Of a stretch of DNA of 64,000 nt, positions 34,046 to 64,000 are shown in pieces. Position numbers and translations under genes: made by a program. The notes beneath the pieces are model-generated. The model saw only the letters and a program-made list of their open reading frames with translations, did not search any database and was not told the origin of the DNA. Position 1 is the first letter of the stretch, and every line of letters begins with the position of its first letter. Source of the DNA: Eledone cirrhosa (taxonomy: Eukaryota); contig OZ024741.1 in NCBI GenBank assembly GCA_964016885.1, positions 81,220,001 through 81,284,000 on the forward strand, in the 5' to 3' direction.

Positions 34046-34046
<1 letters not shown>

Positions 34047-37340: not shown

Positions 37341-37385
<45 letters not shown>

Positions 37386-37662: not shown

Positions 37663-37699
<37 letters not shown>

Positions 37700-37827: not shown

Positions 37828-37886
<59 letters not shown>

Positions 37887-39305: not shown

Positions 39306-40195
39306 ATACCCTTGCAAGCAGGAAAATGATGATGATGATATCGTATTAGATTTATTGTTGCTATAGTTTATTACACCACACCTCCCACGTGCTTTATTTA
39401 TTTTATTTTACTGCTTTTTTATTAGTCTAACACATTGTTTTATAGTTTAGCTATGTTTTTTTTTCTATGTTTGTCAGAAGAAATCAATTTAAGTTTTTTA
39501 TACATATATATATACATATATCATTTCATCATCATTTCATTTTACGTCCGCTTTTCCCTGCTTGCAAGGGTGGGACGGGAACTGATTCTGGGTTGATTTC
39601 TACAGCTGGATGCCTTTCCTAACACCAACCTCATTTACAGTGAGTGCTGGGTGCTTTTTTGCCGTGGCACCTCCACGACCACTTTACAGTGGAATGATAG
39701 GGACCTCAGTCCTATCATCTCATTTCTACAGCTGAGTAAACTGGAGCAATGTGAAATAAAGTGTCTTGCTCAAGGAAACAACACATCACCCAGTCTGATC
39801 AGTATGAAGAAGGCTTAATGAAAAAAAAATTTAAGCTAATAACAAATGTTTTGACGATCCAAAACAGAGAAAGCAGTCTTTGTAACATCAATTTTTTATA
39901 CATGTTATAAAGATCCTTTTTATATATATATATATACAAGGTGCACTTTTCAAACCCTTGGTATTTATGATTTACCTTATGATCCGTATCTAACGTCCAC
40001 ACACGTTTTTTTTCATTATATATATATATATACCCACTCTGTAACTCCCCAGGTATTGAGTACTCCCATGATTAGTGGTCTCCTCGGTCTCAGCACCATA
40101 AACTGTCTCTCTCTGTATATATATAACGTTCAAAGTTATAGATATCAGGTTTGAGATAATATACATATTGAAAGGCAAACCAAAGCATTTGAAGG

Positions 40196-40227
<32 letters not shown>

Positions 40228-40669
40228 GACAACCAAACTAAAAGAAAAAGCAGCAGCTCCACCAACATCATCATCATTGTCAGCTGTATCACTACAACCA
40301 TCATTGTAGTCAGAGTAAAAATTAAAAATATTACTTTTAATGTGCTGCCAAACAATACAGTATTTACCACTAAATGAGATATTTATATTCCCTCTCTCAA
40401 ATTTTTTACAGCTAAGTAAAAAAAAAATTTTTTATTCACCTTCAGTTTTACTGGCTTCAGTAATTAGACTATAGCCATGCTGGGGCACTGCCTTGATTTA
40501 GACAATATGCCTCCTTCCTCACAGTACACTTTTTTTTTTTTCAAGAGTGGTACTTATTCTATTGATCTCTTTTTTGATGAACCACTAAGTTATGGGATAC
40601 AAACACAAACATGAATACACACACACACACACACATGGTGAAACTGCTTCCCAATATTTATTCTGGCCC

Positions 40670-42150
40670 ATCACCACATCTTGTATGTATCCTCCATCAT
40701 GTACGCAGTGACTGCGTACTTTAGATTTTGGCGGTGTGTGGTTGTACTGTTCTAGCGTTATAGATGATGCCTTGTGGTATATCTTACAATCATACCCATG
40801 ACATGGTACTTGTTGACGTCCATGCATTTACTCCGAACACAGTCCTCTCTCTTGCACACCACCAGATAATAGATTGAAGTTCTTTGCCAAAAGCCTTTTC
40901 TATATCAACAAAAGCTAAATAAATATAATGGCTTATTCTTGGCTAGCAACTTTTCTTCTAGTTGTCTCACTAAGAAGAGGGCATCAATAGTACTTTTGTC
41001 AGGCATGGAAACAAACTGCATCTCATCTAAATTTACTCTTTCCCTAATTAGTTGCGCTATAACTCTTTCCGTCACTTTCATAACTTGATCCATTAGTTTT
41101 ATTCCTCTATAGTTGTTCCTTTCTAGAACATCACCTTTGCTCTTGTAGCAATTTATGATTGTACAGTTGTGCCAGTCATTGGGTATGACTCCATCCTGTA
41201 TTACCTGATTGACTATGCAGGTTACTAGTTGGACTTCTACTTCTCCCAATGCTTTTAGCATTTCAAGCAACCATCTGACAGTCTCACAGCTTTACCATTC
41301 TTCATATCTTTGATTGCTTCTTTGACCCTAAAACTGTCAACTTCAATAGCTGTTCTCTGAGCAGTCTATATCTGTCATCTAACTTTTCTCTTAGCTGCCT
41401 GATACTGGTCTCTGCTACCCTCATTTTTCCAGTCTTTCCATGCTTGATGCTTGGCTTTAATGGCTCTATCCATTGTGCTGTTCCATTACCAGGTCACACT
41501 GTCTGGTTTGTGTTTTATTCCAGCCATAAGTCTCAACATCATCACTGTTTTATGTCCATTCTTCCACGCTAGCATGGGTTAGATGGGTTGTCCTGTTGTG
41601 GGCAGTGTCTGGTCGGCTGACCTTGTCTTGCTCATACGGGAACTGATTCTGGCTTGATTTCTACAGATGGATGCCCTTCCTAACACCAACCTCATTTACA
41701 GTGAGTGCTGTGGTTTGCAAAATGTTGTCACATAGGAATTTCCACTTATCTTCTAAGTTATATTTAGTCTGTCACCCCTCTCATCTACTGCACCTTATAG
41801 GACCATTCTAAACATATATATAACTGAAAGGTCCTATAGCTTCCAGACCCTCTGTCTCCATATTTTCCTGCATGTCTTGTTCTGTCTTGTGTTTATTTTG
41901 ATATTGTCGATAACTAACTTGTGTTGGGTGAAACATTCTTCCACAGGGAAGGCCTTAGTGTTTAGTATAGTCCCTTTATCTCGTCTTACAAGTAATCAAT
42001 TTGGCTTTGTTCACCTGATCGATATGAAATCAGGTGGCTGGCTGGTTTCCTGAAATTTGTGTTGCAAATGGTTAGTTCATTCATGTCATAGAATTCCAGA
42101 AGCCTCAATCCCTCTTCATTTCTAGAGTCATAACCATAGCTGCCATAAAG
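40670..42150 (-). mobile_element. Older RTE LINE remnant (APE endonuclease to RT), with nested RTE-tail element at 41537-41712
   Basis: YGSYGYDSRNEEGLRLLEF..NELTICNTNFRKPASHLISYRSG (APE), and ORF 40905-41270 (NYRGIKLMDQVMKV..QF..STIDALFLVRQL.EK). Confidence 0.9.
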
Positions 42151-42399
42151 TGGTTTCTGCAGTTTCTTTCTACCAAAGGCATTACTGAAAGAGAAGCTAT
42201 AGTAGAGGACACTTATTCAATATGTGGTGCTGTAGGACTGAATACAGAACCAAGTGGTTAGGAAGTGAGCTCTTCTAACCATCAATCACACAGTTATGCC
42301 CATTTATTTGGTTTATATTATTCTTTTTTTATATTGTTATTTTTTCCATATATTTCCCCACAAGATACTTTATCCTCCTATATTTTTATTTTACCCTAT

Positions 42400-42530
42400 G
42401 ACTGGAACCATCTGGTGTCTTGCTTACTGTGATTAGAATGGAGATGGCCATCTAGAAGATCAAGCCCTCTAAGTTGAACTGGCTCTTTCAGCACATCTCC
42501 ATTGCTATCATCCAGGGTAACACATTTCAC
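42400..42530 (+). mobile_element. Second CRE-like C-terminal fragment
   Basis: LEPSGVL...LNWLFQHISIAIIQGNTF, homologous to 32350-32540. Confidence 0.6.
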
Positions 42531-44329
42531 ATGAGACAACATCCATTTGATGTCTTGCAAAGGAAACGAGATGCTAGTGTTATCAATAAGTATTTTTTTT
42601 TTTTGTTATGCTTTGTCACAGTTTTGTTTTAGTTTTAATGTCTATTCTTCTCTCTAAATACAGTTGTAAAGTTCAGTGGTCCAGCACTTATTGAACACAA
42701 TACCCATTCCTCCCTCTAAACACAGCTAAAAATTTCAGTGATCCATGACACAGTGGATAAAGTACCTATTATTCTCTCTAAGCACAGCTGTAAAATTCAG
42801 TGGTTCATACATCAACACAGACATGTGTTGTTGGCCTCTACAAGATTGTCTCATAGATTTCACATAGTTTTAATTGCAGGGGTTCCAGTCCCACCATGGA
42901 AAGCAATATGAAATGTGTGAATCCCAACACAGATGAATATAATAATAATTGTTCATTATGAACAATAGTTGAAAAAAAAATCAAGTAATGTGATCATGGA
43001 AAAAGTGGATATATGTATATATATATATATATATATATTGGGAAACAGTTAGGAAATTCACTCCATTATTACTCAGTTTCACACACATTTATTTTGTATG
43101 AAACTTCAAGTAACATAAACCAACTGCTTTCTTATATATATCTGTGTGTGTGAGAGAAAGAGAGTGTAGACATAAACACATATATATATGCACTCATTGT
43201 CATAAAGACATGTTTTGTATACACCAACTTGTGAGAGCATTTATCTATATCTATGTGTATGTATATATATATGTGTGTGTGTGTGTGTTTACACACAGGT
43301 ATATACTCACACGAGTATATACACACACACATGTATATTCATTGAAATATAGCCAAAATATTAAAAGAAGATATAATCTAACTAGGTACTTAGTTTAATC
43401 TGAGTCCAAATTTCATGTTTCATATTTTTTAAATATTTGTATATATAAAAGTACATACACAAAGATTTACAAACAATTACACATATACACAGATGTACAT
43501 ACATATAGAAATACATGCACACAGAGATGTACAGACACATATACACCCACACACCAACTTCAGCTAAAACTGAGGTTTACACATTTCACAAACTAAATAA
43601 AAAATCTAATTATAAAACCCTTAGAGAAATTATCTATATTTTCTATAGTTGTGCGAGTATATATATTATATAAACATATGCACAATATACATACACACAC
43701 ACACACACATATATATATATTATATGCATTCTTTGCCCTAGGGTTAAGCTTACATTGCTTTGCTTATCTCCCACAGTGTGTGTGTGTGTGTGTAGCACTG
43801 TGCAAATGTGCATGTTTGAAAGAGAAAGGATAGTTAGAAAGGAAGAAAAGTATAGAAATGGAGAGAGAGGAGGAGAAAGAGAGAAAGGGGCAGGGAAGGG
43901 CACACACTATTCACAGCTACCTTTTAGGTTTGTGTGTGCATGTGCATTTATTTTAAAATTATCATTGTATCATCATGTAAAAATACTTGACAATCACCAT
44001 CCCCCTACCACCACCACCATCATCATTACCATTAACATAATCATCATCATCAATATGATCATCATTTTCATAATCGTCATTACCACCACCAACATCACTA
44101 TCAACATTGTTACATTGTCACCACCACTATTACCGACATCATCACCACCACCACCACCATCATCATCATCACGATCATGAACAGCTCATGTCTCTACATG
44201 CACTTACTGGAAGTCAGCAAATTTGTGAGAAAGTGTGTGCATGTTTGTATATCTTGTGTGTCCCGATGTTTGAGGAGGGAGCAGAAGAGAAGTGGGGGCA
44301 AGGATGGAGAGGGGAAAGAGATAGATAGA

Positions 44330-44780
44330 AAGTGTATGTGTGTTGGAGAGAGAAACAGAGATAGTGTGCATATGTGTGTGTCTGTGTGAATGAAAGAGAG
44401 TGTGCATGTGTGTGAGTGAGAAGTAGTGTGTATGTGTGTGAGAGATAGAGATAGGGACAGTGTGCATGTGTGTGTGAGTGAAAGATAGTGTGCATGTGTG
44501 TGAGATAGATAGACACAGTGTGCATATGTGTGTGAGTGAGAGGTAGTGTGCATGTGTGTATGAGAGAAAGAGAGAGATAGGGACAGTGTGCAGATATGTG
44601 AGAGAGAGAGATAGTATGTGTGAGAGAGAGGGAGTTAGAGAATATGTACATGTGTTTGAAATGAAATGTCTATATATATTTGCATGTGAGAGAGTGTGTA
44701 TGTGCGTGTGAGAGAGAGAGTATGTATAAGTGCATATGAGAGAGAGATAATGTGCAAGTGTGTGTGAGGGAGAGAAATAA
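44330..44780. repeat. Compound TG/GA degenerate satellite
   Basis: Repeated agtgtgcatgtgtgtgag..gagata units. Confidence 0.9.
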
Positions 44781-47499
44781 CGTATGCATGTGGTTGCATA
44801 TCTAAGAATGTGTGTGTATGTCCATGTTTGAGGACAGGAGAGTGAGATGGAGGGTGGAGATATAAAGTGTGTGGGGAGAGTGTATGGATGGTGGTGAAGG
44901 TAGGGTGTAAATGTGTTTGTTTGTAAAACAAAAAGCAAAAACTATATATAAAGTATAGATCAGAAAAAAAGAAGAAAATTAGTCAGTAACTTAGAAACGA
45001 GGTGAACCAGTGCAGATGTTTAAAATGTTTATATACAACCACCACCTACCACTACCATCGCAAATATAACTACATACATTACAATCACCACCATCACTAA
45101 TACAACTGCATACATCACAGCCACATCCACCACAACAGCATTTACAGATATCACCCCCACTGCCATTTCAAACACAGACATCACAAATCACACCCATTAC
45201 CACCACCACCAATATAACCAGAACCACGGCTACCATAACAGACACCACTACCAATAACCACAGCTACCACCGCCAACACTACTACAAATACAAACACACA
45301 ACCACTATTATTACTACAATTAACCACAGTCTTACCACACTCACTCTCAGTAATAATCCATACCAACAACAACAAACAGTCAGTTCTCAATCCAATTTCA
45401 CAGAACCTCCTCTTCTTCCTCCTCATATTGTCCCTCTACCTTCTCTTTATCTGTTGTATGATATAATCAACATTCCACTTTAACTACATCTGGCCATAAA
45501 CTGACACATTCATGCCCTGCCAATATGGGAGTCTATGTGGTCATTAGAGCTGCTAGAAATGGCCGCTAAATCTCCTCAAATCACACCTTACCATCTTAAA
45601 AAAACAAAAAAATAGGATACTGTAGACCCTAATAATGATGAGGAGGTTACTGTTGAAACACCTTTGACTATAGGTCTGAATCAGGACTGAGTAAACAACT
45701 TCAAAAAGACCAGCAACTGAAGGATCTCCCAAGTGGTTGCTCAAGCTGCTAGAAATAACAGCCATGTTTCTCTCTCTCTCTCATTACACATTTTGCCATT
45801 TCTTTAAAGATAATGTAATCTGAGGTTATTTGAGTCAAGGATTGTCATAATTGGAATCATTTTGATCATAGGTCTGCCCATGTGCTACACAACATGTATT
45901 GTGTGTATACATATCTAAAGCCATATGTTGATGCCCTAAGGGCAGACACTGGTCGGGGGGGGGGGGGGGGGGCACAGGACATAGCGGCGATGATGAAGGA
46001 CAGAGACTGCTGGAGAAAACTCGTCCATGGATGTTGGCAATTTTACCCAAGCTAATAAAAAAAAAAAAAAAAACTAAAGCTTAGCCACTTACACTACATA
46101 ACATGATAGGTAAACAGTAGATTCTGCTAAATTGCATACCAGAAAATTGCATAATTTGTGTAATTACGTAACTGTTCACAATACTGAACTGTTTAATATC
46201 AAATTTATGTAAAATCAATGAGTTATTTACATGTAAACAAAGTCAATTTTTATTATTTCCATAAATATTTTTTCTTCAGATTTTGAGTTGAAAAATTGGC
46301 AAAATGCAGCAGGAAACTGAACAGTTTACCATATTCCAGCTGATCCTGAGAAAATTTCATGATTTAATTAGAAACAACCACATTAAAGATCAATATGTCA
46401 TATTAAGTGTTTTATTAACAAGCTACAGATGTACACACAAATATATTAACAAATTATAAACTTTCAAAATGGAGTATTTTACCTATAATTTGAATATAAA
46501 CCATGTTTTTTTTAAAGCATAGACTTAAAAAAAGCAAAATTTCAACACTAACATATCCACGCCCCCTCTCTCTCATTCACACTCTTTCCCTCTGCTGTCT
46601 ATAAAAACAAAACTTCAGCATTTGCTACTGCCACCACCGCTTTCTCTGGCTGTATCACATGCACACTCTCACCATCCACATCATGACCAACAATTTACAC
46701 AACATGTCATCTATTATTAGCATTATAACCTTTAACAGTCGGCGACAATAGAGTAACCTCCCCTTAATACATAATGCAGTGTCTAGAGAAGCAATTCATA
46801 AAAAAATTCAGCATGCTGAAGGTTAATAAAACAGATACTCATGTATAAGTCTACTTCATGCATAACACAAAGATGCACACACATATGAGAAAGGAAAACA
46901 ACTATCATTAATTCTTCATTCATAAGAAGTTTCTGTAGATTTTTAAGTGGCATATATTAAGTGGTTTCCTTCTCTTGGTGGAGCTGAAGAAAAGATGAAT
47001 CTAAACTACAAAAGCAGGCCAAAGAATCTTATTAGGACTATTAAGACTTGATACCAATCCCTTGCAAAATCACTTCTGGTTCTATGAAACAACATCGTCC
47101 ATTTTAAAGGGCTCCTATTTAAATTAAAATCTTCCAACATAATTTTGGATTAGAACCATTTCTTGTTTATGTCCGTTTTTTATTGTGGACATTTGCTAAT
47201 ATATAAATACACATACACACATAGTGGGTGTTTTTACACAGGGGAGACTGGGTACTTTGTCATTGTACCTTACAGGGTCGACATGGTGGTTTTTATTGTG
47301 ATTAGTGTGTCAGGCTTGGGAACCAGATAGGAGTGGGGGTGTGAGCTATATGTGGCTTCTAGATATGGGAGACATCCTACCATGGGAGAAGGAAGCACCA
47401 GGTCATAGGACTGACCCTGAAGCAGTTAAGTGGTGTCTGACATATAGTGGGATTGTGCCTGGCTTTCTGTGCTGGTCTGGGTTGGACAGGAAAGGTGAG

Positions 47500-49240
47500 T
47501 AAGGTATGTGACTGTAAAGGGAGAGAGACCTGTGCTGGTCAAGGAATGTGAATTACAGAAGGTTTCCCTTATCTTTCTATGGTGGCATAGGTTGAACAAG
47601 GGAGGGAGGAGAAGGCCATGATTGGGCAGAGGTTAATGAGGAAGAGGGGTAATTGGGGTATACTGACAAGCAGGGATGTAAATGTTCCACCTCTCATCTT
47701 CTTGGGGTTTAAGGTGGGGAAAGTGAATGGGAGGGGAGTTGGAACCATACTAGCAGGTGGGGGACATCTTGATGCTTGATTTACAATGCTTGCATGGGAA
47801 GGTTTGACTTCTACTATATAGCATGTTGCCAGTCTTCTTGATCTTGGGTTATTTCTTTTGCGAGGTGCAGCTCTGTGAGACTGACCTTCACCACAATGTT
47901 CCAAATTTTCTTCGGTTTCTCCCTTCTAAAAATTCTGCATTTTTTTGTGCAGGTGTCATCCTCCATACGAATCATATATCTATAATAAGACAGTCTTCTT
48001 TCGTGCAGACTGCATCTGATTCCTCTTATGCACAGTTTTTCTCAAAGCTCATTATGCTCCTTTGTTCATGTATATTTGGTATAAGAACCATTTATTGTTT
48101 ATGTTCAGTTTTTTTTTTATGTGGACATTTTCAAATATATATATGCGCACGCACATACAGTAGGTGCCTTTTTTTTCATGGAACCAGCATGACAGGACAT
48201 GCTTCTGCATTTTCTTCCAATCTTTGTAAGTCTTCCATGAACTTCTATGCAGCATTACCTTTCACATAGGAACATAATACAATCTGCCTTTCGCTCTGAT
48301 GAGAAACCCTTTGTAGCCAGCAGTGGTAGCAGCTCTTTGGATGTTTTCACCCCATTCGCAGACCGGCTACTGCACTTTCAAAACATCCACCTCCACAACT
48401 AATTTGGTCCACCAGGTAGCATTTTATGGGACTTGTTTTATGTGATCTCTTGCTGTGCATCTGTTATAAACAAAGTCAACATTTTCTGCTAGGCAGCTTG
48501 AGATCCCACTACATCACCTGTGTACCCATAGCTTACATTTTGCACATAAATTGGAATTTCTACCTTCTCCTTTCCTGCATACCTAGCATTTCTTTTAAGG
48601 AATCAGAGCCTTATTTCTTTTTTACTTAGTCAACTTGGCAAAAGTCCTAGTGAGTCCAATTTTTTTCTATGTCTGGAATTCCTTCACTAATTCTACTGCA
48701 GTCTCAGTTATAAAAACTAGATCATTGGCATATAGGAGACCCCATGGGCAGCCAGTCTTTAATATTCTATATGTGTATGGATGTGTGTGTAGTAGTAGAT
48801 ACTGGCACTTGAACGCTAGCTGAGATATTTAATCACTGAAGGTGCACAACTATTCTTCAGGTTGTCAGTGCTATGTTTTTACATATATGTGGATTAAGAA
48901 ATTTGCAGGGCTTAGTAATTTAACTAACTTTCTCATTATTAAGTTCTCACATAAAAATATGACCATAGGTTATTAAATAAATGTAAACACTTTAAAACAG
49001 GTTTCAATCATAGAAGCAGGGGCGGTTCCAGGTGGTTTGGTATTGAATGGGTGCTTCATCATTCATGCACATTAACATTACACATCCAATGGAGCATGCT
49101 CGCTTCATTTCTCTCCAGCTTTCACATATCCTCTGCAATCACCACTCATGTCTCAATGCCATGCAACATTGCACTTATCACGCTGGCAGTGGCAAGAAAA
49201 TCCTTTTGTTGTCTATCAGTATGTGGAATACTCAGCCACT
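47500..49240 (-). mobile_element. Heavily decayed RTE LINE pieces (47500-48770, 49028-49240) interrupted by a MITE B piece
   Basis: Reverse complements give KTGCPWGLLYANDL, YLVDQISCGGGCFES, VKGNAA, RLSYYRYMIRM.D and MLHGIE..V.AEDM.KLERNEASMLHWMCN. Confidence 0.8.
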
Positions 49241-49414
49241 TACACTATAATTCAAGGAGCAGGTAGTAGTGTTGATCGAAGAACTGAAATACTAATGATC
49301 GTCACAACTGGTTGAAATCCTTTCACTTTACTTATGTTTATTAAAAAAAACTCAATATAAAAGGTTTGGTTCCTTTCAGCAAGCATGCTATTTTCACTTA
49401 ACTGATCAAAGGTG

Positions 49415-49472
<58 letters not shown>

Positions 49473-49781
49473 ATCTACACAAACACACACCCATGCACAT
49501 ACAAATATATACATTTCTGTTTGTGTATAAATATATATATCAGTTTTAAATGGGCATATATATATATATATATATAACAAATTGGTTGAAACAGCTTTCG
49601 TTGATTATACCACCCACCCACACCATTCTTTCCGTGGTTGGTTGGTTAGTTGGTGGTCAAGTTTGCAGTTCTGCTCCATTGAGTTTGGTTCTTCATTCAA
49701 CAAGCACCACTGGCAAACCAAAAATTGTGTTTATGTGTATGTGAATACCTATTACTTTTTATCTATGAGTACAAGTACATC

Positions 49782-49812
<31 letters not shown>

Positions 49813-50306
49813 GCGCGCGTGCGTGCGTGCGTGCGTATATTGAATACCTATCACTTTTTTTATCTATGCACATCAGTGTGTGTGTGCAATTGAGTGTTTA
49901 CTGAATACCTATTGCTTTTTGTCTATGCACATGATTGTGTGAGTGAATGACTTTATCGGATTTATATATGTACACGTGTACACATCTGTATGTGGGTGTG
50001 TGTATGTGCGCATGTGTTTATGAATATCCATATTTTTTTAGTTTATGTATCTGAGTGTGTGAAAATGCATCTGTTGTTTTATATGCATATATATTTTGTG
50101 ATGTGCGTGTGTGAGATTGTGAGTGTATTTATGAATGCCTTCTCTTTGTATAGGTGTGTGTGTATGTGTGAGCGCAATTGGGTGACTGCATTTGTTTCTG
50201 TGCATATACAAATTTTTTGTATATGTACACGTGTGTGATGTGTGTGTGTGTGTGTGTAAGTACTACTGTTTTGGGTGTGTACATATATATATATAAATCA
50301 TTATAT

Positions 50307-50346
<40 letters not shown>

Positions 50347-50437
50347 TATATATAAATACACATATATATATATACACATATATATAAATCGTTATATACA
50401 CATATATATATATATATATATATATAAATCATTATAT

Positions 50438-50495
<58 letters not shown>

Positions 50496-50809
50496 ATATA
50501 ATGATTTTGTGTGTGTTATACCTAGCAGTGTTGGTGGTGATGGTGATAGTATTATTAGTGGGGTGGTTGTGGTAATAAAAAGCTAGAGTCAATAGTAATT
50601 CCATTAGTACCTAAGGCTGCTGCGGTGGTGGTGGTGGGAGGTTTATACTGTCATTCATTCTTACATACTTTCTCACTTTGTTGTACAATAGGATGTCATA
50701 CAATGCTGGTGGTGGTGGTAACACAACAGTTGTGGGTTTGGTGATGGTGCTGATGGTGGTGCTGTGGTAGTTGTGAAAGCCACAATAATAGAATAAGCCA
50801 TAGCTGATC

Positions 50810-51330
50810 AGTGAAAACACACCCCTGGCCCTCAGCAATCCTGGATGGGTCGTGGGAGGGGGGGGGGGGGCTTCAAGCACGCCTTCCAGAAGTAACCATC
50901 TTCAGTTCATCTGGCTGGATCCCCAAGCGAGATCAACTAAGTTCATGGATGTCATGCTATCATCTTTCTTAGGGTCTACCTCTGCGTTTCCTGCTGGTTG
51001 GTTTTGCCGGTAAAATCTGTCCATTGATTCTTTCCTGTGACATTCTAACTACATATCAGTAGTATCAGAGTTGTGATCTCTCAATTCGGAGAAGTAGTGA
51101 CTCTATTTGAAGTGACCGCCTGATCTCCAAGTTACACACCCTATTGCATAACATTATTCCAAAACCCTTTGGAGGATCTACATTTCAGCCACATGTATTC
51201 GTGACCATATTCTTTGTCATTACCCAAGATTCATGACCATAGGTAAGGGTTGGCACGAATACCAAAGTGAAGATAGCGAGATTGGCTTTTACACCTGCCT
51301 CCCTTCTGATGACCATATGAGAATGCATAA
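50810..51330 (-). mobile_element. Rex3/Expander-like RTE LINE 3' fragment (distinct family)
   Basis: LAIFTLVFVPTLTYGHESWVMT; SLLLRIERSQL; VRMSQERI...RKRRGRP; SRLGIQPDEL. Confidence 0.8.
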
Positions 51331-53076
51331 AGAAACAGTTCAAAGACTGGGAAGACGACAAATCAGAGTCGTCCTCGATGCATCTTCTTGAGTAGCAGAG
51401 CAAGTATAATTTTCAGGTATAGATCCAACAGAAGGCACTCTCCATTTTGACTAAATGTTCTCAAGTCTCATCTAGCGAATTAATTCTCTCTTTCTCTCTC
51501 TTTATGTGTGTGTGTTGTTTTTCATTCTTTTTCTTTTTATTCAATTGTTTTTTTACATATCTACTTGTGCATGGTTCTTTAATACAAAGGTGTTTATTTT
51601 AAAAACCTTTCTTCATAATTTTATGCAAGAATATTTGTTATGTTCCAAACACCATCTTAATAATGAGAAAATTAGTTACGCTACTAAATCTGTCCAAATT
51701 CTTGTTTATTTTCAAAATATTAGGCAGTATCTTTTATAACAAAAAGGATAAAAAACATGCACACACATCGGATTATATTGTCTGAGGTACATTATTTTTG
51801 AAAATAAGACAAAGTGGTCATGTTGGGAATTCCATCTATCATAGGTCTGCTTGATCAGAGGATAACCTACAATACCATCAACCACTAGTAGGTAATCATA
51901 GCCACCATAAGGTCCTTTTACAATGCAATGTTTTACAGCCAGGTGCTTGCTCTTGGGAAAACTTTTAGTTAGCTCTTACAACATGCAGAGACACAGTGTA
52001 GCTCTTCTAAACTTAATACACACAAGAAAGATGACTAAAAATGACATAGCTACAGATGACAGAGGGCGGGAAAGCCAAGGCGTTAGAGAGGAGTTAGATG
52101 GGGTGAAATCTACCCGCAAAGCTAACCGCTGCTTCAACAGAGAAAATAAACTTAATCATATTTATACCAAACTGTCTGAAACTGTTCCTGGTTCTATGAT
52201 ACAAAAGTGTTTGTTTTTAAGTGTATATATTTATCTGAACATTTTCCATCGTAATTTTATATAAGAACACTTGTTCCAAACAGCAGATGAATAATCAAAA
52301 AGTTATATTAATGAATTTCTTGAAATTCTGATCTTTCATTAGATATAAGGCCATAAAAAGGTTAAAATACTTGTGTTGTAGGAGAAAAAAGTAATTCAGA
52401 AAGATACAAGGAAAACGTATGAAAGAAAAAAAAGTAAAAATGTATAGATGCATGCACATTATATATATACATACCTTCACAGACACACACACACACATTT
52501 ATATATATATATATAACCCCACAGACACACATATACACATACATATAAATACATTTATAAGTTGAAACCATTATAAATTGGATCATAACTATTAAGGTGT
52601 CTGGAGAATTGCAACACATCGGTGAACCAATTTCATAGATGATGAGATTTTAAACTAAGGTAAGCCAAAGAATTTCAATGTAAATTTTTGAGGGGGGAAA
52701 TTCTTAATGTAATAATAATAACAACAATAATAATATTAACGTCAATAATATAATATAATAGCAATAATAAATTAATAATAACGACGATAATAATAACAAT
52801 GACGATGATAATAACGATGTTGATAATCATAATAAAAAATATGAAGAGAGACTGAAGTTTAGAAGCAACAGGAACAAGTTATAGAAATAAAAAAGTATAT
52901 GAAGTGAATATAACAGCCAGTAGTAGCAGTAATCCAAGTGTATGTATGTGTGTGTATATATATATATATATTAGAGAGAGGGGGGAAGGGGGGGGGGAGA
53001 ATCTGAAATGTGTGTGTGTGTAAAAGGAAGAGAGGAGAGTTAGAGTAAAGAGAGGGAGAGAAGAGAAAAGGAGAAA

Positions 53077-53525
53077 AGTTAAACAAGTTTATAAATATGT
53101 TCTGCTTAATTTATATGCTGGATGGTGTCTTACACAATTTCCTGTCACACGCTTACTGTCAAATCAAGAAAAAGATTGACAAGAGTGAGAAAACTGAGAG
53201 AGACACACACAGAGGAAATGAAAGATTGGGGCAAAGTGAAGGTCTAGTAAACAAGACAGAGCAAAGTTATAAATACTTTCTACTTAATTCATATGCTGCA
53301 TGGCATCTTACACAATTTCCCCTCACATATTTACTGTCAAATCAAGAAAAAGAGAGACAGAGAGAGAGTAAACAAGAGAGAAAGGGAACAGCAGTGGGGT
53401 GAAGGGTTAACAAACAAGAACAAGAAAATCTAGGGCAAGGTTATAAATACTTTCTACTAAATCTGCATACTGGATGGTGTCTTATGGAATCCCTCCTCCC
53501 CCAGTCACACAATACAGTCAAATCT
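53077..53525. repeat. Degenerate ~180-bp tandem triplication
   Basis: ttataaata..ttct.ct.aat..atatgctg.atgg..tcttacacaatttcc...actgtcaaatc three times. Confidence 0.8.
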
Positions 53526-53559
53526 ATCATCACTATACAATTTATTATTATCATTATTT

Positions 53560-53762
53560 TGGCAGTATTGGTAGATCAGCAAACAATATGCATTAGTTAT
53601 TTCCCTTTATGTTCTGAATTGAAATCTTGCTGAGGTTAGCTTTACCTTTCATCTTTACAGGGTCGATAAAATAAAGTACCAGTATACATTGGGGTCGATA
53701 TAATGGACTTTCCCCTCTCCCTTCAAATTGCTGACCTTGTGCCTAAAGGAGAAACAATTATT
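53560..53762 (+). mobile_element. tRNA-derived SINE
   Basis: Core ttagctttacctttcatctttacagggtcgataaaataaagtaccagt and tail ccttgtgcctaaagga.aaacaatt. Confidence 0.8.
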
Positions 53763-53929
53763 ATTCAGACTAACAGAGTGAAGCTTGCATGGGTTCAACT
53801 GAAGAGATCTACCAGGTTGAAACATTGATTCATTTAAGGTGTTTCGAACCTAGTAGTTTCTCTTTCCCTGTAGTATTTATAACACCAAAAGTGTTTTGTG
53901 CAGCAATATTAAAAACATTTTCAAATAGA

Positions 53930-55175
53930 TACAAGAGTAAGTAAAAAAGTTTCCAAACTAGCTATTTATTTAAAAAAGGACTTTATTTACATAAGTTTAA
54001 ACACCATCTCCTTTGAAATAGTCCCCTTGCGCAGCAATGCACTGATCCCAGCATTTCTGCCACTCCTGGAATGTGGCCTTGAAGTCATTTTTGTAAGTTT
54101 GTCGAGAACCTTCTGTGATTTGTGCTGGATCTTGGCAAGGGTATTAAAATGGTGACCTTTGAGCTTGATTTTCATCTTTGGAAAAGGAAGAAGTTCGCAG
54201 AAGCTAAATCTTGTGAGCACGGAATCGATCGCTTGTGCTTGGCGAGAAACTCACGGATGATGAGTGCTCAGTGACATGGTATGTTGTTGTGGAGAATCCA
54301 GTTCTTCATGCACCACAGACCAGTTGCATTCACTGAATGTTCTCCCTAAAACCCCTCACAACTTTATAGTAAAATTCATTTTTGATGGTCTGGCGCAGGG
54401 GGACAAATTTTTGATGAACAATGCTGCAGATATAGAAAAAGATGATAAGCACGCTCTTGATTGAAGTGTGGCTATGTCTCACTTTCTTTGATCGTGGACA
54501 TGATGGACTCTTCCATTGAGTTGACTGCTGCTTTGTCTCTGGATCATACCCAAGACTCATCACTGGTGACGATCCTCGACATTAATGATGGCTCATCCAC
54601 TAGCACTCCGGCTGAGTTCTTGTCAAACTTTGAAACAATTTTCCTTCTGGTCATGTGTTAGCGATGGACAAACTTAGCAGTGACATGCTGCATGTTCAGT
54701 TGAAACGTTAGGATTGCCTGCACTGACCCATATGATACACCAACAATGTCAACAAAGTCGATCATTCTCCGACGATCCTCATACACAAGTTACCTAATTT
54801 TGTCAATATTTCCAGGACTGATGCTCGTCAAAGGTTTTCCAGATCCGTACCACTTGAAAAATTACAAACGGCCCATTGCCTCACAGCCATACACTTGCTA
54901 AAACATGTTCAATGTCTCTGTAGTCGATTTTCCAAGTTTAATACAAAATCTCAAATCGGCTCTTTGTTCCAACTTGATGTCCATGATGTAATCGCAGATT
55001 TGCACATAGACATCATCAGAAAAACACCAATTTAACAACTCAATGTAAATACAACAATGTCACTTGGTATACTGACTTATGACAGTTACAGCTATCACTG
55101 TGCACGCAACCCTGTGCTCCATCTGTTGGTGTGCTACAGAGTTAGTCCAGAAACTTTTTGATATCACCTCATGTA
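53930..55175 (-). mobile_element. Near full-length decayed mariner transposon
   Basis: GYDPETKQQSTQWKSP..PRSKK...K..LIIFF...IVH.KFVP..QTI and FPKMK.KLKG.HF; imperfect TIRs TAC..G.G...AAAAAGTTTC..ACTA flanked by TA; ~1.25 kb. Confidence 0.9.
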
Positions 55176-55204
55176 TCATCATCTTTATATGTATAATAAT
55201 AGTA

Positions 55205-56760
55205 TGCAATAATGACAAAGCATTAATGGGCTGAGAGAAAAACTGGGCATAAAAGGGTGCAGAGTACAAGAGAGAAGACTGTGATGATACGGTCTTGTGA
55301 TGCATATGAAGTATAAAAATTGCATAAAGAAGTACATGGTACTCAAACTTAACCCTTTAGTGTTCAAACCGCCCGAAACCGGCCGAAATTATTTCCCCTT
55401 CATTTGTTCAAACCGCTCGAAACCGGCCGATAACACTCACACTAAAATATTGTTCTAAAAATAAACAAACCATCATCAAAATCTCGTCAATTTGATAATT
55501 ACTGCGAGATTAGGCCCTTACCACGAAAATTAACACTTAATATAGTGAAACAAATTAAAACAACATGTGTTTTTTTAACATTGAAAGTAGAACAGATTTT
55601 TTGTGCAACAACATGGCTTGTGAAAGTAGTGATACCAACTTTGAAAGTTTTACACACGATCACATTCAGAATGAACAAGAAACAAAAGATAATATTAGTG
55701 ATTTATCTTCAAATGAATCATGTTTATATTTCTGAAATTTCATCCGACGATGATTGTTGTTTTTAAAGTGAAAACGAAGGAGATCTCCAGGACACCATTG
55801 AAAATATTACAGCAATGTGGTTGAAAAATACCACACCAATAATATGTTCCCGATTTTATTCAAAATATTGGTCCACAACACACATTAGCTCCCGATGATA
55901 AAGCACTGGATTACTTCTTTTTTTTTATCACAAACTTTCTTCGAAGTTGTGGCAGAAAAGATTAATCGATATGCCCAACAACAGATTTCAAATCGAGGAA
56001 AACCCAATCTGTTTGGCGACCGACAGATGCTGCGGAAATGCAAGCATTTTTTACCGTAAATATTATGTTCGGTATAAAACAATTTCGAAGACTGTGGAAT
56101 TACTGGAGCACTGATATAAGGTTTAGTGATCCTTATATGTCAAGTATTATGCCGAAAACAATGTATTTAAAATTAAACCATTATTTGCACCTGGTTGGTA
56201 CTTCAAATGCCCATATTAATTAATTTCACCTGCCCATAAAAGTCAAATTTAACCCAAAAAATCAGGTAAAATTATATAATTGTAAATTATTGATATTTAA
56301 ACATCTACTGACAAAATTTCAAGCCTGCACATAGAAAATTAAGAAAATTACAAACAAATAAAATTAAAAACCCTCTTGAGTATGATTAACTCAAAATAAT
56401 TGTTTCTACTTTTGGCACAAGGCCAGCAATTACCCAGTTCATTACTGGTACTTTATTTATCGACCCGATAATGATGAAAGGCAAAATTGACCTCGACGGA
56501 GTTGGAACTCAGACTGTAAAGGGATGTAACTATGCTGGAAAGCATGCCGTCCGACTCGCTACCGATACTGCCAATTCACCGCACAGATAAGCATGACATT
56601 TGAAAATTGGTGCGAATGCTAAAGGGTTAAGGCAACCTGAGAAAAAGGAAGACCTCGGAAATCATGGGATGAAGTGGTAAAGTTGGACTTCACAGAGATG
56701 ATGACAGAGAACCAAGAAGGTTGGTGATATGCCATACTAAGACTCCTATCCATACACAGA
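55205..56760 (+). mobile_element. RTE 3' remnant split by piggyBac copy 2
   Basis: ERRL..YGLVMHMK..NCIKK..LKL before the TTAA and G.LRK.GRPRKSWDEVVKLDF after it. Confidence 0.75.
55353..56626 (+). mobile_element. Non-autonomous piggyBac element, copy 2, including transposase N-terminal remnant and SINE passenger (~56395-56582, minus)
   Basis: TTAA at 55349-55352 and 56627-56630; CCCTTTAG...CTAAAGGG; colinear with the reverse complement of 473-1727. Confidence 0.92.
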
Positions 56761-58727
56761 TGTGATGAAAGACAAAGATGTAACAACACTCATCCCCTCC
56801 CCACCTAGTCTTCCATCCACTCACATACCTGACTCCATGAGCATGGGGAGTATGGCTGTAAAAGGCAGAATGATGTAACAACACTTAGGTTGCCTCTTCC
56901 ATCAGCCCTCCTCACTAGATATTCACCCCATTACAAACTTTATCTTCCCCACAATAATCCTTCCATTACTGACTTGTCTCAGCTCCCACTCACATCCCTG
57001 ACACATAAACAAAGGCAGGTGAACCTTCACTGTGCTTCCAGATGCTGCTTGCTCACTCCTCTCCAAAACTACCCTATTACCCAACACTCTCCAACAATTT
57101 GCACTTTTCTATGCTCCCCCACTCCACACTGCTGAACACCAGTCACTTAACCTAAGGCCACTTCACCTCACCCTCCCTCTAACAGGCAGCCTAGAAAACT
57201 GTTGTTGATCTGTCCTTTTTAAATCTCTGTTACCACTGTACAGAGTGGGATTGGTCCTGTGCAAGGTCTTCACTTCAAAAAGCTTTAAGCACAGGTATCA
57301 CTGATTTTAAAACTGGGGTAAATGTGATTCCTGAAACACCTTGGTGACAATCTTTCAAGAATCATGAACATAGAGCATTATATACACGAGTATTAGTGCA
57401 ATTACTCGTGGTCCCTCACCTTCAGCAATCAGGATTGGAGCAGACCAAGATATATATATCATCATCATCGTTTAATGGCCATTTTCCACACCTGCATGGG
57501 TTAGACAGCTTGTCATGTTATGAGACAATTCAGGTCAAGAGAGCACAGCTTGCTCACACAGATCTGTATTTTAACTTGGTTTCTATGGCTAGATGCCCTT
57601 CCTAACACCAACCACGTTACAAAAGACACAACTGCTGGGATCAGACGCATAAGTGAGAAAAGAACTACTAAAGGGTCAGGCTTTTTATAGTGGAACTAAA
57701 ACAGCTATCTAAGAGGATGGACTGGGTGTTTATTGTCGTCTCACCAGCGTGAACAAATTGCAGAGTGGATTGGACACTTTTTGTCATGCGATTAGCATCA
57801 CCACCTTACAAAATGGACTGGGTGTTTCTGTGGTGCTACCAGCTTGACCACCTTACAGGGTGAACTGGGCACTGTTTGTTGTGTCAATGTACATTTATTG
57901 ACTATGAAAAATAGTTTAATAAGTTCAAATATAAGCCTCTGGCGACAGAAAAAGGGGACATCACCACCCATGGAACTCAAACTCACAGCTACCATATACC
58001 ATTTCACCATTTTTTTACCATACAACATTTACCATTTTTCTGTTTTTTAAGCATTATCAATCAACAAGGAATGTAAAACAATCTATTTTTAGAACATTAG
58101 TCAAGAATAAATATGTTCATGAACATAATATTTTGATATGGAAAATGGTTTTAAATTTTGTTTATATAATTTTTGCTTCACAACTCCATTAGACAATAAT
58201 TTTTTACCATTTCACCTGTTTTACAGGTTTCAACATGTTGTAACAGGAATTTATGTATGTATGTATGTATATATGTGTATATATATATATATATATATGA
58301 GTTTATACATCCATTCACTTTCACTCATCCTCTCTACCAGTCTTCTCTCTTCTACCTAACTATTTCGTTACTATCTACTCTTACCCCACTTTCTTCCTCT
58401 CCCTTTCTCCCTCTCACCCCCCTCGCCTGACCCTTTAGTAGTTCTTTTCTCACTTACAACTGCTGGGATCAGACGCATGTCTTTTTTCTCTCGATCACTC
58501 AGTCTTGAACTTAAGTTCTCTTATCGAGTGGTCTTGGATTTTCTTACTTTAAGTTGCTCGCACATTACTCGGTTTGTTGTTTTTTTTCCGCTGTTTTTTC
58601 AGTTTTCTCTTTTCAGCCTTTTTGTTTTCCTTCCCTCCCTCCTCCGTTTTCCCAATAACTTATCCAGTTATTGACGCCCTGGGGATAGATATCTTGTCTT
58701 TAAAGTGTAGAAATATCCGAGAGAATA

Positions 58728-59915
58728 CCCGTGTAGGAGTTAGCTCTGGACAGTAAGCTCCAAGTAAGATTGTATGTTATTATCTTGGAGGTCCAGATGT
58801 GGCCTGAAAGTGTAGTGGCATGTCGCCGGACCAAGATAATAACATAACATACAATCTTACTTGGAGCTTACTGTCCAGAGCTAACTCCTACACGGGAGGA
58901 CGCCGTCCATGTAACTTATGCTCGGAGGTAACATTACAAATGCTGTTTACGAAGGACCAACTCCTAAACAAAAAAGACGAACTGGTAACTGTATGCAAAC
59001 ACCGATTGCGTAGGACTTACCTCGCCCTCAAACCCCCTAACAACCTGGGTGGGTAGACAATGGCTGAAACATCCCACTGCTGAATAAAATAGGCTTACAT
59101 ATGTAGATGTGCCTCTTTTTTTCCTCCCTGTTTTCTTCTTCACTTTATCTCCTCCTATTACTTCCTTCCACTCCCGATCTTCTTCCTTTTCTTTTTTTCC
59201 CCTTTCGCCTACCCCGAGGCAGCCCATCGGGCCTCTGTAGCCTCAGTACCTCCACCCCAGTAAATTAAAGATAGCATTGGCCGATAACGCAATACTAACT
59301 AATCATAGCAGCTGTGTTAGACCCCAGAGATTTTGTATTACTTTTTACTGCCCAATTCTATAATTTCAAAATTTCTTATTTAGTATCTTCTATTCTCAAC
59401 TTATTAACCTATTCTATAGCATTGGCCAAAAAAGCAACACCAACTAAATATAGCAGCTATTTTAGACTCCACAGTTTTTGTTTTTTATCACTTTTCACTA
59501 TCCAATTTTATATTTTTATATATCTTTCTCTTATTTTTTTTATTGTCTCCAAATCTCAATTTTATAGCGTCCCTCCTCTATTTTCTCCAGAACCCTTTTC
59601 CGCCTACTTCCTCTGGCCTACTTTCATACACAATCCTTAGAATTTGCTGTATAGATTTCACTTTCAAAGCTTGACCGGCTCCACCCACTCCCTCATTGCT
59701 CTACAGGCAAGTTCAGCCACCCCCACTGCCATGATAGATTTAATTGTGTTTACAAGAAATTCTGACCAATCCTCTTGACAACTACAATCTTCCCATATAA
59801 GGAAATACCCCTTGAAAAGTTTGGATATTTATTTACCAGGCTATAAATTCTAATTTAGTCCAGAAATAGCCATCGAAACGGATTGAGCTCTGCCGTCGGG
59901 GTCATACATTTTCAT
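58728..59915 (+). mobile_element. Penelope-like retroelement 3' fragment: GIY-YIG C-terminal end, 5' inversion, 3' UTR with hammerhead, ending at (TA)n
   Basis: YNLTWSLLSRANSYTGGRRPCNLCSE..L.ML...LLNKKDELVTVCKHR matches the W.I...A..Y..G...CNLC..EK...LLNKR.E....C.H end of Penelope endonucleases; 58728-58788 is an inverted copy of 58831-58896. Confidence 0.85.
59807..59902 (+). ncRNA. Type I hammerhead ribozyme, U3:A8 core variant, long stem II, GUC site
   Basis: acccc-TTGAAAA-g[tttggatattt...aaatagccat]c-GAAA-cgg...ccg-TC-ggggt; stems I and III pair; predicted cleavage after 59897. Confidence 0.7.
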
Positions 59916-60121
59916 ATATATATATATATAAATTTATATATATATATATATATATACATTTTTTGAGTATATGTTGGTTGTATACCAACACCTCAGTATG
60001 CAGATTGGAGCACTCGACGAAGTGCGCAAGTTGGTTTGGTTACTCCGGAGTAATGTAAAATAAAATAAAATAAATAAGTCAAATGTTTAAAATTTGGCTT
60101 CGTTTAAATGTTTAAAATTTG

Positions 60122-60173
60122 GCTATATATATTTCGGTGACAGCCATTTTTGGCTGTGACCTCTTCAGGCAGT
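60122..60173 (-). ncRNA. Hammerhead motif, minus-strand copy with disrupted stem I
   Basis: Reverse complement actgc-CTGAAGA-ggtcacagcca aaaa tggctgtcacc-GAAA-tatatata-gc; the gcagt arm is replaced by a local duplication. Confidence 0.65.
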
Positions 60174-61104
60174 CTGAATTAATTTACTTGATTTTTGATT
60201 CTTCATTTTTGATTTCTCATTATTCATTTGTTATTTGTTTTCTGTTTTCTTCACTTTATCACCTTATATTTATATTTAAGTTGAGATTGGTTATAACACA
60301 CACACATTTTATCTTATTTTATTTGAATCTTCATTTTTATTTTTCACTTTTCATTTTCCATATTAATTTTTCATTTATTCTCTATTATTTATTTTCTGTT
60401 TTCTTCATTTTATTGCCTTCTATTTCTTCATATACATGGCAGAACCCCCCTCACCACCACCATGGGAGATGGTGGCAGGAGGGATGAAGAAACACACACA
60501 TAGATACTTCTAAATTGTCAGCAGCAGCAAGACATAAGCTGACCACAACACTACCAAAATAAGGGTAGAGGTCAGATGTACTTAATAGCAAACACAAACA
60601 CTACAGGGAGCCTCACCCCAGAAAGAATTTCTATAGACTTTGGACTGAGGAATGCTCTCAAAACTGACCAATGGGAAGTTTGACCTTACAAATCTTTATA
60701 ACATTGAGATGGGTATAACACACACACACATTTTATTTGATTATTTTATTTTATTTTGTTCCTTTACCATCTTATTCCTTCTACCACTTTATCACTTTTT
60801 TTTGAGCTGACTCCAACAACAACACCACTACCAACATAAGAATAGAGGTCAGATGTACCTAACAACAACTACAGATTGGCTTGCCTCAGAACGAACTTCT
60901 ATAGACTTTTGACTGAGGAATGTTCTAACAACTGACCAATGAGAGGAGAAGAGGCCCTTTGACGCTGAAATTTGTTTGTTTAAATTCATATGATTCCAGT
61001 TTCTCAGTGAAATAACAACCCAACCAGGAACTGGGCATATCAGAGTATTGACGAAGTTATACACCTCAACAACATGTGTACTCGTCTCTACCACACTAAT
61101 TCGG

Positions 61105-61159
61105 ACTGCCTGAAGAGGTCACAGCCAAAGATGGCTGTCACTGAAATATATATAGCAGT
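61105..61159 (+). ncRNA. Minimal type I hammerhead ribozyme
   Basis: actgc-CTGAAGA-ggtcacagcca aaga tggctgtcact-GAAA-tatata-TA-gcagt: 5-bp stem I, ~10-bp stem II, palindromic stem III, AUA site. Confidence 0.82.
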
Positions 61160-61304
61160 AATAAATGAAGCCAAATTTTAAACATTTGACTTATTTATTT
61201 TATTTTATTTTATATATATATATATAAGTGTTTTCACATTCTTTCATACATACATGAATGCATGTACATATTTAAATATATATGCATGTATACACACATG
61301 TATG

Positions 61305-61343
<39 letters not shown>

Positions 61344-61609
61344 ACACCCTTCGGTCACAAATTACCATACCATGGGTTTTGTATTTAGAAAGTTCCTATC
61401 CGAGGTACAAGCTCGGGTAAAATTTTTGCAGCCCATGCACACCTCTCTCCTCACTCCTCTCTACCAATGTTGTTCAAGGGCAAGGCAAAAGCAGATAAGT
61501 TTGGCACAAGTGACATCACAACTCCAACAGAGTGAACTGCGGCAGGGTGAAATAAAGTGTCTTGTTCAAAAACAAAATGCACTGCCCAGTCCAGGAATTG
61601 ACTAACAAA

Positions 61610-61815
61610 CACATGCACCCTCGGATTCCTCTTAAACCCAGCTGGTCCCTCAGTTCATCCAAGCTTTGCCTTTCTTTCACATTTATGTTGCAAATCCAAT
61701 GAAACATAGCTGCTTGCTTTCTCTCCAGTCTACGCATGTCTTCAGCAGTTACAGTCCATCTTTCACTATCATGCAGCATCACACTTTGCACACAAGCGTC
61801 ACACAATTGTCCTTT
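61610..61815 (-). pseudogene. Decayed RTE ORF fragment
   Basis: LKGQLCDACVQSVMLHDSERWTVTAEDMRRLERKQAAMFHWICN..ERQSLDELRDQLGLRGIR. Confidence 0.85.
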
Positions 61816-61933
61816 TAAAAACATTCTAACACAATCTTTTCGAAGAACCTTTGTTAAGACCTTGTTCCAAACACCTGTGATGATTTTCAAGATTATAAAA
61901 AATGCTTCTGAAAGAGTTAATATATTTGATATA

Positions 61934-62045
61934 TTTTACCTCATGTATTCTCATTCCTCATTTCCAGCTGCCACCTCACAGGATTTTAAACAAAGAATAA
62001 TATATCTTACCTGAAAAATAACAAAAAAACATAAATATTAAAATA
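61934..62045 (-). other. Candidate recursive splice site (junction 62011/62010) with 71-nt cryptic exon and downstream donor
   Basis: Minus strand reads ttttaat..tttatgtttttttgttatttttcAG|GTAAGA; second donor GAG|GTAAAA at 61940/61939; stops in all frames. Confidence 0.55.
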
Positions 62046-62329
62046 AATACAAATATTCATACATATCCATATAAGAATTTATCTACATAATCTATCTTAC
62101 GGGCGATCTGTCGATTTTGAGAATGTAAGCAATACTTGTCTTTTCTTTTATCCGTAGTCTTCTCAATAAGCAGAGTTTTAAACTCCTATTTATGCCAGTC
62201 TAAAATTCAAATTCTCCGTTTTCCTCTCGGATTTTCAATTATTATTTTACATGTTTTGTTGGACCCTTCCTAAAAACTAACCTTCCTGCACCTCGCTCGC
62301 AAACATTGTAAACACTTTGCTCCTTCTCT

Positions 62330-64000
62330 GGAAGTTCTCTGGAAGTTGAAGGACCCCATAGCCAGTGACAAATTTAAAAGTTTATTATTTGATGGCTTTG
62401 ACAATAAGGAAGAGCAATTAGAGACGTGCGATATAGAGGAACAGTGGCAATTCTCGAAAGTGAACCTGCTGAAAGCAACGGATGAAATCTGTGGCTGGAG
62501 CAGACCTATTGGCAGGAGAGTAACTTGGTGGTGGAACAGTAAGGTGGAAGAGATAATCAAGGCCAAAAAGCAGGCTTGGAAAGTAGAGAGCACTATCAAG
62601 TGGCCAGGAGAGAAGCTAGGAGACAAGAGTACCATGCAAAAAGGATAGCAGAGGATAGAAAGTTCAAGCATGTTCTACCAAAAACGTGAGGTTTCAGGAT
62701 TGCTAGACAATGTGTCAAGGAAAACTGTGATATTGTCGGGGAGAAGTGTGTCCGTAATGATAACGGTGTACTTGCGCTCACTGATACTGATAAGAAGATA
62801 GCCTGGGAGTGTCACTACGAGAGACTATTAAATGAGGAGAATAAATGGGAAAAAGATAGTCTGCCCCAAATCGATCCAATAGAAGGATCAGCGGTGCAAG
62901 TTAAAGGTAGTATAATAAGTAAGGCAATCAAAGATATGAAGACAGGCAAGGCAACTGGGCCTTCGGAGATAGTTGCTGAGATGTTGAAGGCATCTGGTAT
63001 GGTGGGACACACTATGGTCACCCGTATAGTTAACCAAGTAATACAGAATGGGGTCATACCAAAAGACTGGCGTAGCAGCATCATCATTAACTGCTACAAG
63101 GGTAAAGGGGATGCCCTAGATAGGGGAAACTATAGAGGCATTAAGTTAGTTGACCAGGTCATGAAGGTCACAGAAAAAAGAGTTACAGCGCAACTAATCA
63201 GAGAGTGAATTGATCTAGATGAAATGCAGTTTGGGTTTGTGTCAGGTAAAAGTACCACAGGCGCTCTTTTCCTTGAACGACAACTACAAGAGAAGTACCT
63301 AGCTAAAAGTAAACCCCTCTACTTAGCTTTTATATAGACCTGGAGAAAGCCTTTGACAGAGTCCCCCGCTCCATTATCTGGTGGGCTCTTAGAAAACTAG
63401 GTGTAGATGAATGGCTTGTGAGAGCTATACAAGCTATGTATAAAGAAACAGTCAGTAAGGTTAGAATTAACAATGAATATTGTGAAGAATTTAGTGTAAA
63501 AGTTGGCGTTCATCAAGGCTCTGTCCTTAGCCCTCTCCTATTTATTATTGCCCTTCAGGCTATAACAGAGGAGTTCAAGACCGGCTGCCCATGGGAACTC
63601 CTATACTAACGCTCATAGCTGAATCAATGGCTGAACTTGAGAAGAAATTCGAAACATGGAAGCATGGCCTAGAAATCAAAAGGCCTTAAAGTTAACTTGT
63701 CTAAGACTAAAGTTCTAGTATGTAGAAAGGAAAATAGGGCACAGGTGCCCTCAGGGAAATGGCCATGTTCAGTGTGTAGGAAAGGAGAAGGCAGAAATTC
63801 CATTTTATGTCCCAAATGCAAAGTATGGGTACATAAAAGATGTAGTGGGATCACAGGTAAAATATCTAAGAACGTAGACTTTATATGTGGCCAATGCTCA
63901 GGTGCAATAAGTAGCAAGTGTCCACAGGATACTAGCTCCTTCTATTGCCCAGATGGTTCTATAGAAATAGTAGACACTTTCTGTTACCTGGGTGTCGCAA
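62330..64000 (+). mobile_element. RTE LINE, related subfamily, runs off the window end; disrupted
   Basis: WKLKDP linker, TWWWN, NYRGIKL, QFGF, DLEKAFDRVPR, GVHQGSVLSP and PHD-like finger; a ~10-bp deletion near 63606 removes ADD of YADD; stops and frameshifts. Confidence 0.93.

Follow-up and report, generated by a model that had tools for sequence, protein, structure and literature searches.

The minus-strand site at positions 62013/62010 of the window, by which we mean the whole stretch of 64,000 nucleotides of Eledone cirrhosa DNA analysed here, is in our estimate, with a probability of about 0.72, a ratchet point of recursive splicing, second in a series of five acceptor-plus-donor motifs in the first coding intron of a MAN1A-type gene. 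Since the five motifs all lie on the sense strand and divide the intron evenly, this intron is likely removed piece by piece, with the site as one of the stepping stones. The initial annotation had read the segment as a recursive-splice motif, and sequence statistics support that reading: there is a host gene on the same strand, its intron is 290 kb long, and four further motifs of the kind occur within it.

Inspection of the window places every part of the candidate on the minus strand, which the initial annotation had not named. A predicted branch point, TTAAT (62037..62041, with its A at 62038, 28 nt 5′ of the junction), precedes a polypyrimidine tract (62014..62033) in which 16 of the 20 nt are T, and this tract falls within a zone of 71 nt without AG upstream of the 3′ splice acceptor CAG (62011..62013). 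The putative ratchet-point donor GTAAGA (62005..62010) follows directly, so the T-rich tract and CAG/GTAAGA (the slash marks the junction) described previously are indeed present, at 62013-62005. Next comes a cryptic exon of 71 nt (61940..62010) with stops in all three frames, closed by a second, weaker donor, GAG/GTAAAA (61934..61939, GT at 61939), which had also been noted correctly. The exon had been called purine-rich; its length, its stops and the purine run quoted for it were borne out, but it is not purine-rich throughout, the last 41 nt being 73% purine and the first 30 nt 43%. In the frame of the host gene, a TGA stands at codon 20 (61953-61951), and because 71 is not a multiple of 3, inclusion of the exon would bring a frameshift in addition to the premature stop.

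It had also been proposed that the first donor is the stronger of the two, which holds with a correction. Given that splicing removes the CAG, the donor would be rebuilt from GAG, the last bases of the upstream exon, and the comparison is then between GAG/GTAAGA, with a U1 pairing energy of -9.6 kcal/mol, and GAG/GTAAAA, with -6.9 kcal/mol; these energies assume the usual U1 5′ end. The donor at 61939 is the best U1 match in the 250 nt downstream, the runner-up (-6.7) being at +136.

To find the host gene, we examined about 600 kb around the window. An open frame on the minus strand, 111 kb past the window end, contains the membrane-anchoring and stem portions of a GH47 alpha-1,2-mannosidase; among named proteins it is closest to Argonauta hians MAN1A (64% identity). 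MAN1A is a housekeeping glycan-trimming gene. This first coding exon contains the anchor and stem only, and ten further exons were recognised by Pfam PF01532 and tblastn, the first of them starting at C2:81104858. Two homologous proteins pass directly from KVK[QE] to MMKF, which in this genome are 290,530 nt apart, and this defines by homology a phase-0 first coding intron of 290,530 nt (G000:C2:81104859-81395388, minus strand). The intron runs from GTAGGT to TTTCAG after an upstream exon that ends in AAAGAG, and the whole window (1..64000) is an inner part of it, both flanking exons lying outside. Because the homologous proteins continue directly across the intron, the 71-nt segment is not a constitutive coding exon; the collinear proteins are those of other species, and minor isoforms may still differ.

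Other splice-like signals were seen in and around this gene. A strong acceptor lies some 80 nt 5′ of the start codon (L022:2100-2130, minus strand), and for this reason the gene probably has an upstream non-coding first exon; no strong ratchet motif was found in the 198 kb upstream of the first coding exon. The top acceptor-like YAG/GT of the 664 kb scored (score 22) is on the sense strand of the same intron, at offset 206,600 (about window -31211), and continues with GTTGTT, a poor donor; it may be the acceptor of a cryptic exon or a T-run. We set aside TAG/GTAAGT at -137007 (C2:81082993, minus strand), a weak motif with 13 of 20 pyrimidines that lies some 670 nt short of exon 3, within the second coding intron.

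The five sites were defined by a rule that combines YAG/GTAAG with at least 15 pyrimidines in 20 nt and a 20-nt AG-free zone. The rule finds them at window coordinates 131752, 62013, 21054, -46447 and -82024 on the sense (minus) strand of the intron, a density of 1.7 per 100 kb, whereas antisense and flanking strands, 1,036 kb in all, have none. The pyrimidine cut-off was picked post hoc, with the data already in view, and the result of 5 versus 0 between sense and antisense strands is stable at cut-offs from 13 to 16, with three matches in other regions at 13/20. The sense strand of the intron is T-rich, containing 23 strong acceptor-like sites versus 8 on the antisense strand, and after correction for this the expected count for the class is 0.026. 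A matrix trained on 57 motif sites outside the host intron ranks all five within the top 10 of the 1,910 YAG/GT sites in 664 kb. The segments between the sites measure 43.6, 69.7, 41.0, 67.5, 35.6 and 33.1 kb, a spacing of greater regularity than chance would give (shortest segment, P = 0.003; longest, 0.014; spread, 0.008), and the 62013 site divides what would be a gap of 110.7 kb. The next candidate ratchet point downstream is the same-strand motif at 21054 that the initial annotation had already reported; it is real and single-copy, with 20/20 pyrimidines followed by TAG/GTAAGT (21046..21074, minus strand), and the best donor downstream of it is AAG/GTATGT at +172. At each of the five sites, U1 pairs more strongly with the rebuilt donor than with the one downstream, and among the rebuilt donors the one at 62010 is the weakest (-9.6 vs -10.7 to -11.5 kcal/mol).

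Not all of these sites are independent. Those at 131752, -46447 and -82024 (L051-L053) represent a single cassette of about 170-270 nt, present in three copies with 72-77% identity, so the five sites amount to three independent cases. Of 157 ungapped columns, 110 are shared by the three copies, which have all kept a stop in frame at codon 11; one of them is without the downstream GT and retains the tandem acceptor-donor. A short repeat piece sits ahead of the three cassettes. A genome search returned no cassette copies beyond the three in this intron, and a profile built from the three paralogues detected neither additional nor decayed copies across 664 kb, leaving 62013 and 21054 unmatched.

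The wider class to which such motifs belong is enriched across the genome. The pattern Y10-N-YAG/GTAAGT occurs 148 times, versus 38 for the GTAACT control (+5 G>C), which has the same dinucleotide expectation, with 32 given by a Markov model; the excess is thus about 110 (148 minus 32-38). Other controls gave 53 (RAG) and 80 (reversed pattern), and a stricter pattern gave 15 versus 4. Neighbouring pairs less than 1 Mb apart, among the 100 matches listed, were on the same strand in 16 of 16 cases, versus 35 of 73 for pairs more than 1 Mb apart; without three duplicate pairs the count is 13 of 13 (p = 0.0002; 0.002 with strand skew taken into account). The control sets contain few close pairs, on the same strand in 1/3 each, and say little.

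We took sequences for 60 of the 148 motif matches (28 from close pairs and 32 in list order) and for 20 of the 38 controls, and analysed 57 motif loci and 18 controls after removing look-alikes (L077, L081 and L132 among the motif loci; L139 and L146 among the controls). L132 resembled others through TA repeats only, and the homologous L090 and L091 are both among the 57. Where the pattern leaves positions unfixed, the median T content of the 57 sites is 0.57 versus 0.36 in controls, their T-tracts are longer (p = 7e-6), and the AG-free zone is 57 nt versus 26 nt. A YTAAY branch motif occurs at -15 to -45 in 32 of the 57, versus 4 of the 18 controls; shifted windows gave about 8.6. G/GTAA is found 21 times at +25 to +100 in the 57, versus 3.9 expected, with a peak at +30 to +70 and none at +10 to +30. 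The controls are themselves impure, with four G/GTAA versus 0.7 expected (p = 0.007), an effect that vanishes under six other donor definitions. Unlike coding exons, most of the motif loci are GC-poor, and their open frames are short.

If the mechanism described for flies and humans also applies here, transcription past 62010 would allow the 71-nt cryptic exon to be defined by its acceptor together with the weak donor at 61939, and the upstream exon, ending in AAAGAG, would be joined to the CAG with the removal of a 69.7-kb piece. The joining would rebuild GAG/GTAAGA, which would outcompete GAG/GTAAAA, and the next step would remove all 71 nt together with 41 kb, as far as the 21054 site, with no trace in the mRNA. 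Use of the weak donor instead would yield a premature stop and a frameshift upstream of the catalytic domain, and the product would presumably decay. Each of these steps, from exon definition and CAG joining to donor reuse, exon skipping and decay upon inclusion, is taken over from that fly and human model.

The same anatomy could serve another purpose. The 71 nt might be a regulated poison cassette exon, spliced in through 61939 in some cells and causing nonsense-mediated decay, with GTAAGA being incidental or acting only as a brake on inclusion. The segment does have the full anatomy of an exon, with a purine-rich 3′ half, an in-frame stop and a frameshift, and the 110 of 157 columns shared by the paralogous cassettes, with the codon-11 stop kept, exceed the needs of a bare splice signal. 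However, a poison exon needs no initial donor, yet all five sites have one, and the excess of the class hinges on the +5 G (148 vs 38); moreover, the rebuilt donor beats the downstream donor at 5/5 sites, and the paralogue that lost its downstream GT still retains the tandem site. We regard this explanation as unlikely.

We would likewise be surprised if the motif had arisen by chance, in the form of a T-run, AT-rich and in part derived from a repeat, that merely precedes CAGGTAAGA and that the spliceosome does not use, a reading under which the other four sites may still be real. The matrix score of the acceptor at 62013, 17.1, is reached by only 5 of the 26,498 YAG sites on control strands (1,036 kb), so that 0.002-0.004 sites as strong would be expected by chance per 290 kb, which speaks against an accident. 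This acceptor ranks third among the 1,910 YAG/GT sites of the 664 kb (both strands), and of the MAN1A gene's own acceptors, seven of which were placed approximately, six score lower. The rarity rests only on the octamer and the strong acceptor together and not on YAGGTAAG by itself, as the bare octamer occurs 6 times in the window versus 4.2 expected, no excess over chance. Also against chance are the branch motif at -28 and the donor at +71, both of which are in place, and the division of the 110.7-kb gap. What favours chance is that the GTAAGA class, that of 62010, is not clearly enriched genome-wide: Y10-N-YAG/GTAAGA occurs 53 times, or 45 with one tandem array counted once, against 48 for GTAAAG and 41 for the reversed pattern (p = 0.09, Markov-corrected). 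The 62013 site itself falls outside the Y10 pattern because there are purines in its tract. The T-richness of the sense strand (23 strong acceptor-like sites vs 8) points the same way, as does one GTAAGA match to the crude rule on the opposite strand in 600 kb of other regions, although that match scores only 2.6. A separate curiosity of this class is a tandem array at C24:5478383-5478844, in which nine polypyrimidine-YAG/GTAAGA motifs follow each other on one strand, 33-69 nt apart, like abutting mini-introns.

A repeat origin bears on the same question. A 351-nt query had 45 other matches in the genome, all of them starting at or beyond 62023 and most at 62074; none of the 45 covers the acceptor or the cryptic exon, and three extend into the upstream part of the T-tract (79-81% identity), which favours chance to that extent. 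Contig depth is about 9-12 over 61915-61996 versus thousands to either side, as measured in three DNA runs of one sample. A genome search without matches does not itself prove rarity, and the read depth is concordant with it: the acceptor and the exon are not multi-copy transposable-element sequence, in line with the initial annotation, which placed them in an island of non-repeat DNA. It described this island as lying between RTE fragments, a label of its own; the immediate upstream neighbour is a separate multi-copy element of about 210 bp (62074..62285, recognised by genome search and contig depth) that ends about 60 nt upstream of the acceptor; LINE remains lie beyond this element, away from the acceptor. 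Downstream of the cryptic exon there is a degenerate C-terminal fragment of a LINE reverse transcriptase (61540..61815, minus strand; 52% over 79 aa to the LINE ORF of the window). The T-tract of the 62013 site may be partly derived from the neighbouring repeat.

Elsewhere, the element at 62074..62285 occurs in direct pairs, in inverted pairs and in a five-copy tandem at C2:154.64 Mb, an arrangement that may point to Penelope-like terminal repeats. Pfam named none of three fragments flanking the site and only the LINE ORF at 3019. LINE copies are present at window positions 2199-4083, 34004-34942 and 62274-64000, the 3019 copy having, according to Pfam, a PHD finger after the reverse transcriptase domain, and this PHD-finger family is the source of many weak YAG/GTAAG matches on both strands.

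It is very improbable that the segment is an exon of something else, whether the alternative final exon of a truncated protein made up of anchor and stem or part of a nested non-coding RNA. In favour of this, anchor and stem are all that the first coding exon encodes, and the paralogous cassettes are conserved across about 170-270 nt; against it, Rfam has no match at the 62013 site or at the three paralogous cassettes, and the donor at the start of the exon, the even spacing and the genome-wide peak of second donors are left unexplained.

Returning to the ratchet-point reading, we can consider how such sites may originate. Among the 60 sites outside the intron, a sample enriched for close pairs, the only homologous pairs (at least 100 nt) are three, L080/L081, L076/L077 and L090/L091. 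In each of these, the two members are neighbours on one strand, separated by 52-330 kb, and their homology has the splice site at its centre. The pair 52 kb apart is 89% identical over -83 to +70, with only one other short match within 1 kb, the pair 330 kb apart is 94% identical over -133 to +424, and the pair 304 kb apart is 69% identical over -232 to +16. Together with the trio in the intron, these pairs suggest that new sites arise through short local duplications; alternatively, the pairs may be ordinary segmental duplications whose flanks then decayed. Even spacing is not general: in three held-out 200-kb regions around other same-strand pairs, where six seeds were found again by construction as part of the training set, there were no extra sites on the seed strand among 11 YAG/GTAAG, and the gaps are 112-169 kb. 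On the opposite strand of these regions, one of 22 YAG/GTAAG, a TAG/GTAAGA, meets the crude rule with a matrix score of only 2.6. We found no host gene in the three regions, as the top open frames resembled retroelement remains or noise. With somewhat less than even confidence, we can envisage that cephalopods use well over a hundred sites to remove their giant, repeat-inflated introns by recursive splicing of the fly type, and that new ratchet points arise through local same-strand copying of acceptor-plus-cryptic-exon cassettes of 150-550 nt over tens to hundreds of kb along the transcription unit, with selection keeping them as the intron grows.

The mechanism itself would be a known one, and it is likely only the lineage that is new. 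In vertebrates, Sibley in 2015 and Blazquez in 2018 are said to have described RS-exons in long introns, which are reportedly repeat-rich and hundreds of kb in length, and in which exon definition is followed by donor competition, with a premature stop if the exon is included. For mammals, the definitive count of fully suppressed sites is reportedly only nine; unlike these nine, the excess of about 110 for one strict pattern here is closer to the situation in the fly.

For Drosophila, the accessible portions of two sources describe ratchet points with cryptic RS-exons in Ubx, kuz, Bx and luna, the last with five sites in 108 kb (10.1101/006163; PMC8605326). The validated recursive exons of Ubx (mI and mII) start with GTAAGA (10.1101/006163), and ratchet points have cryptic exons of about 50 nt that are closed by a second donor (PMC8605326). 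The candidate shares with these fly examples the tandem acceptor-donor in a long intron, the presence of several sites per intron, the GTAAGA start, a branch point near -30, a short out-of-frame cryptic exon and a weaker downstream donor, and the genome-wide peak of second donors at +30 to +70 matches the layout of fly RS-exons (PMC8605326). Unlike in Drosophila, where the set described in those portions has introns of up to 133 kb and segments of 18 kb on average and 64 kb at most, the intron here measures 290 kb and its segments 33-70 kb; furthermore, it belongs to a mollusc, is filled with repeats, contains three paralogous sites and is known from its sequence.

An excess of ratchet-point sites has also been computed for the large introns of sea urchin, mosquito, bee, beetle and fly (PMC2773006), likewise with a logic of sense versus antisense strands; the 1.7 sites per 100 kb found here compare with 0.5-2.2 there, a comparison that is only rough because the scoring differs. 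That study covers 13 species, with no mollusc or other spiralian among them, and its accessible part contains no test of downstream cryptic donors or local duplication, unlike the present analysis. Recursive splicing is proven in flies and vertebrates, and in the open-access literature we found no study of recursive splicing or ratchet points in molluscs, cephalopods or octopus, where long genes are, according to the accessible part of one report, neuron-enriched (PMC7222433). The intron described here offers five exact junctions, and its paralogous cassettes hint at how ratchet sites are born. If true, the cephalopod case would fill the spiralian gap and, given that the accessible text of PMC2773006 contrasts the fly solution with repeat-stem folding in vertebrates, would mean that repeat-rich giant introns are able to use the fly solution.
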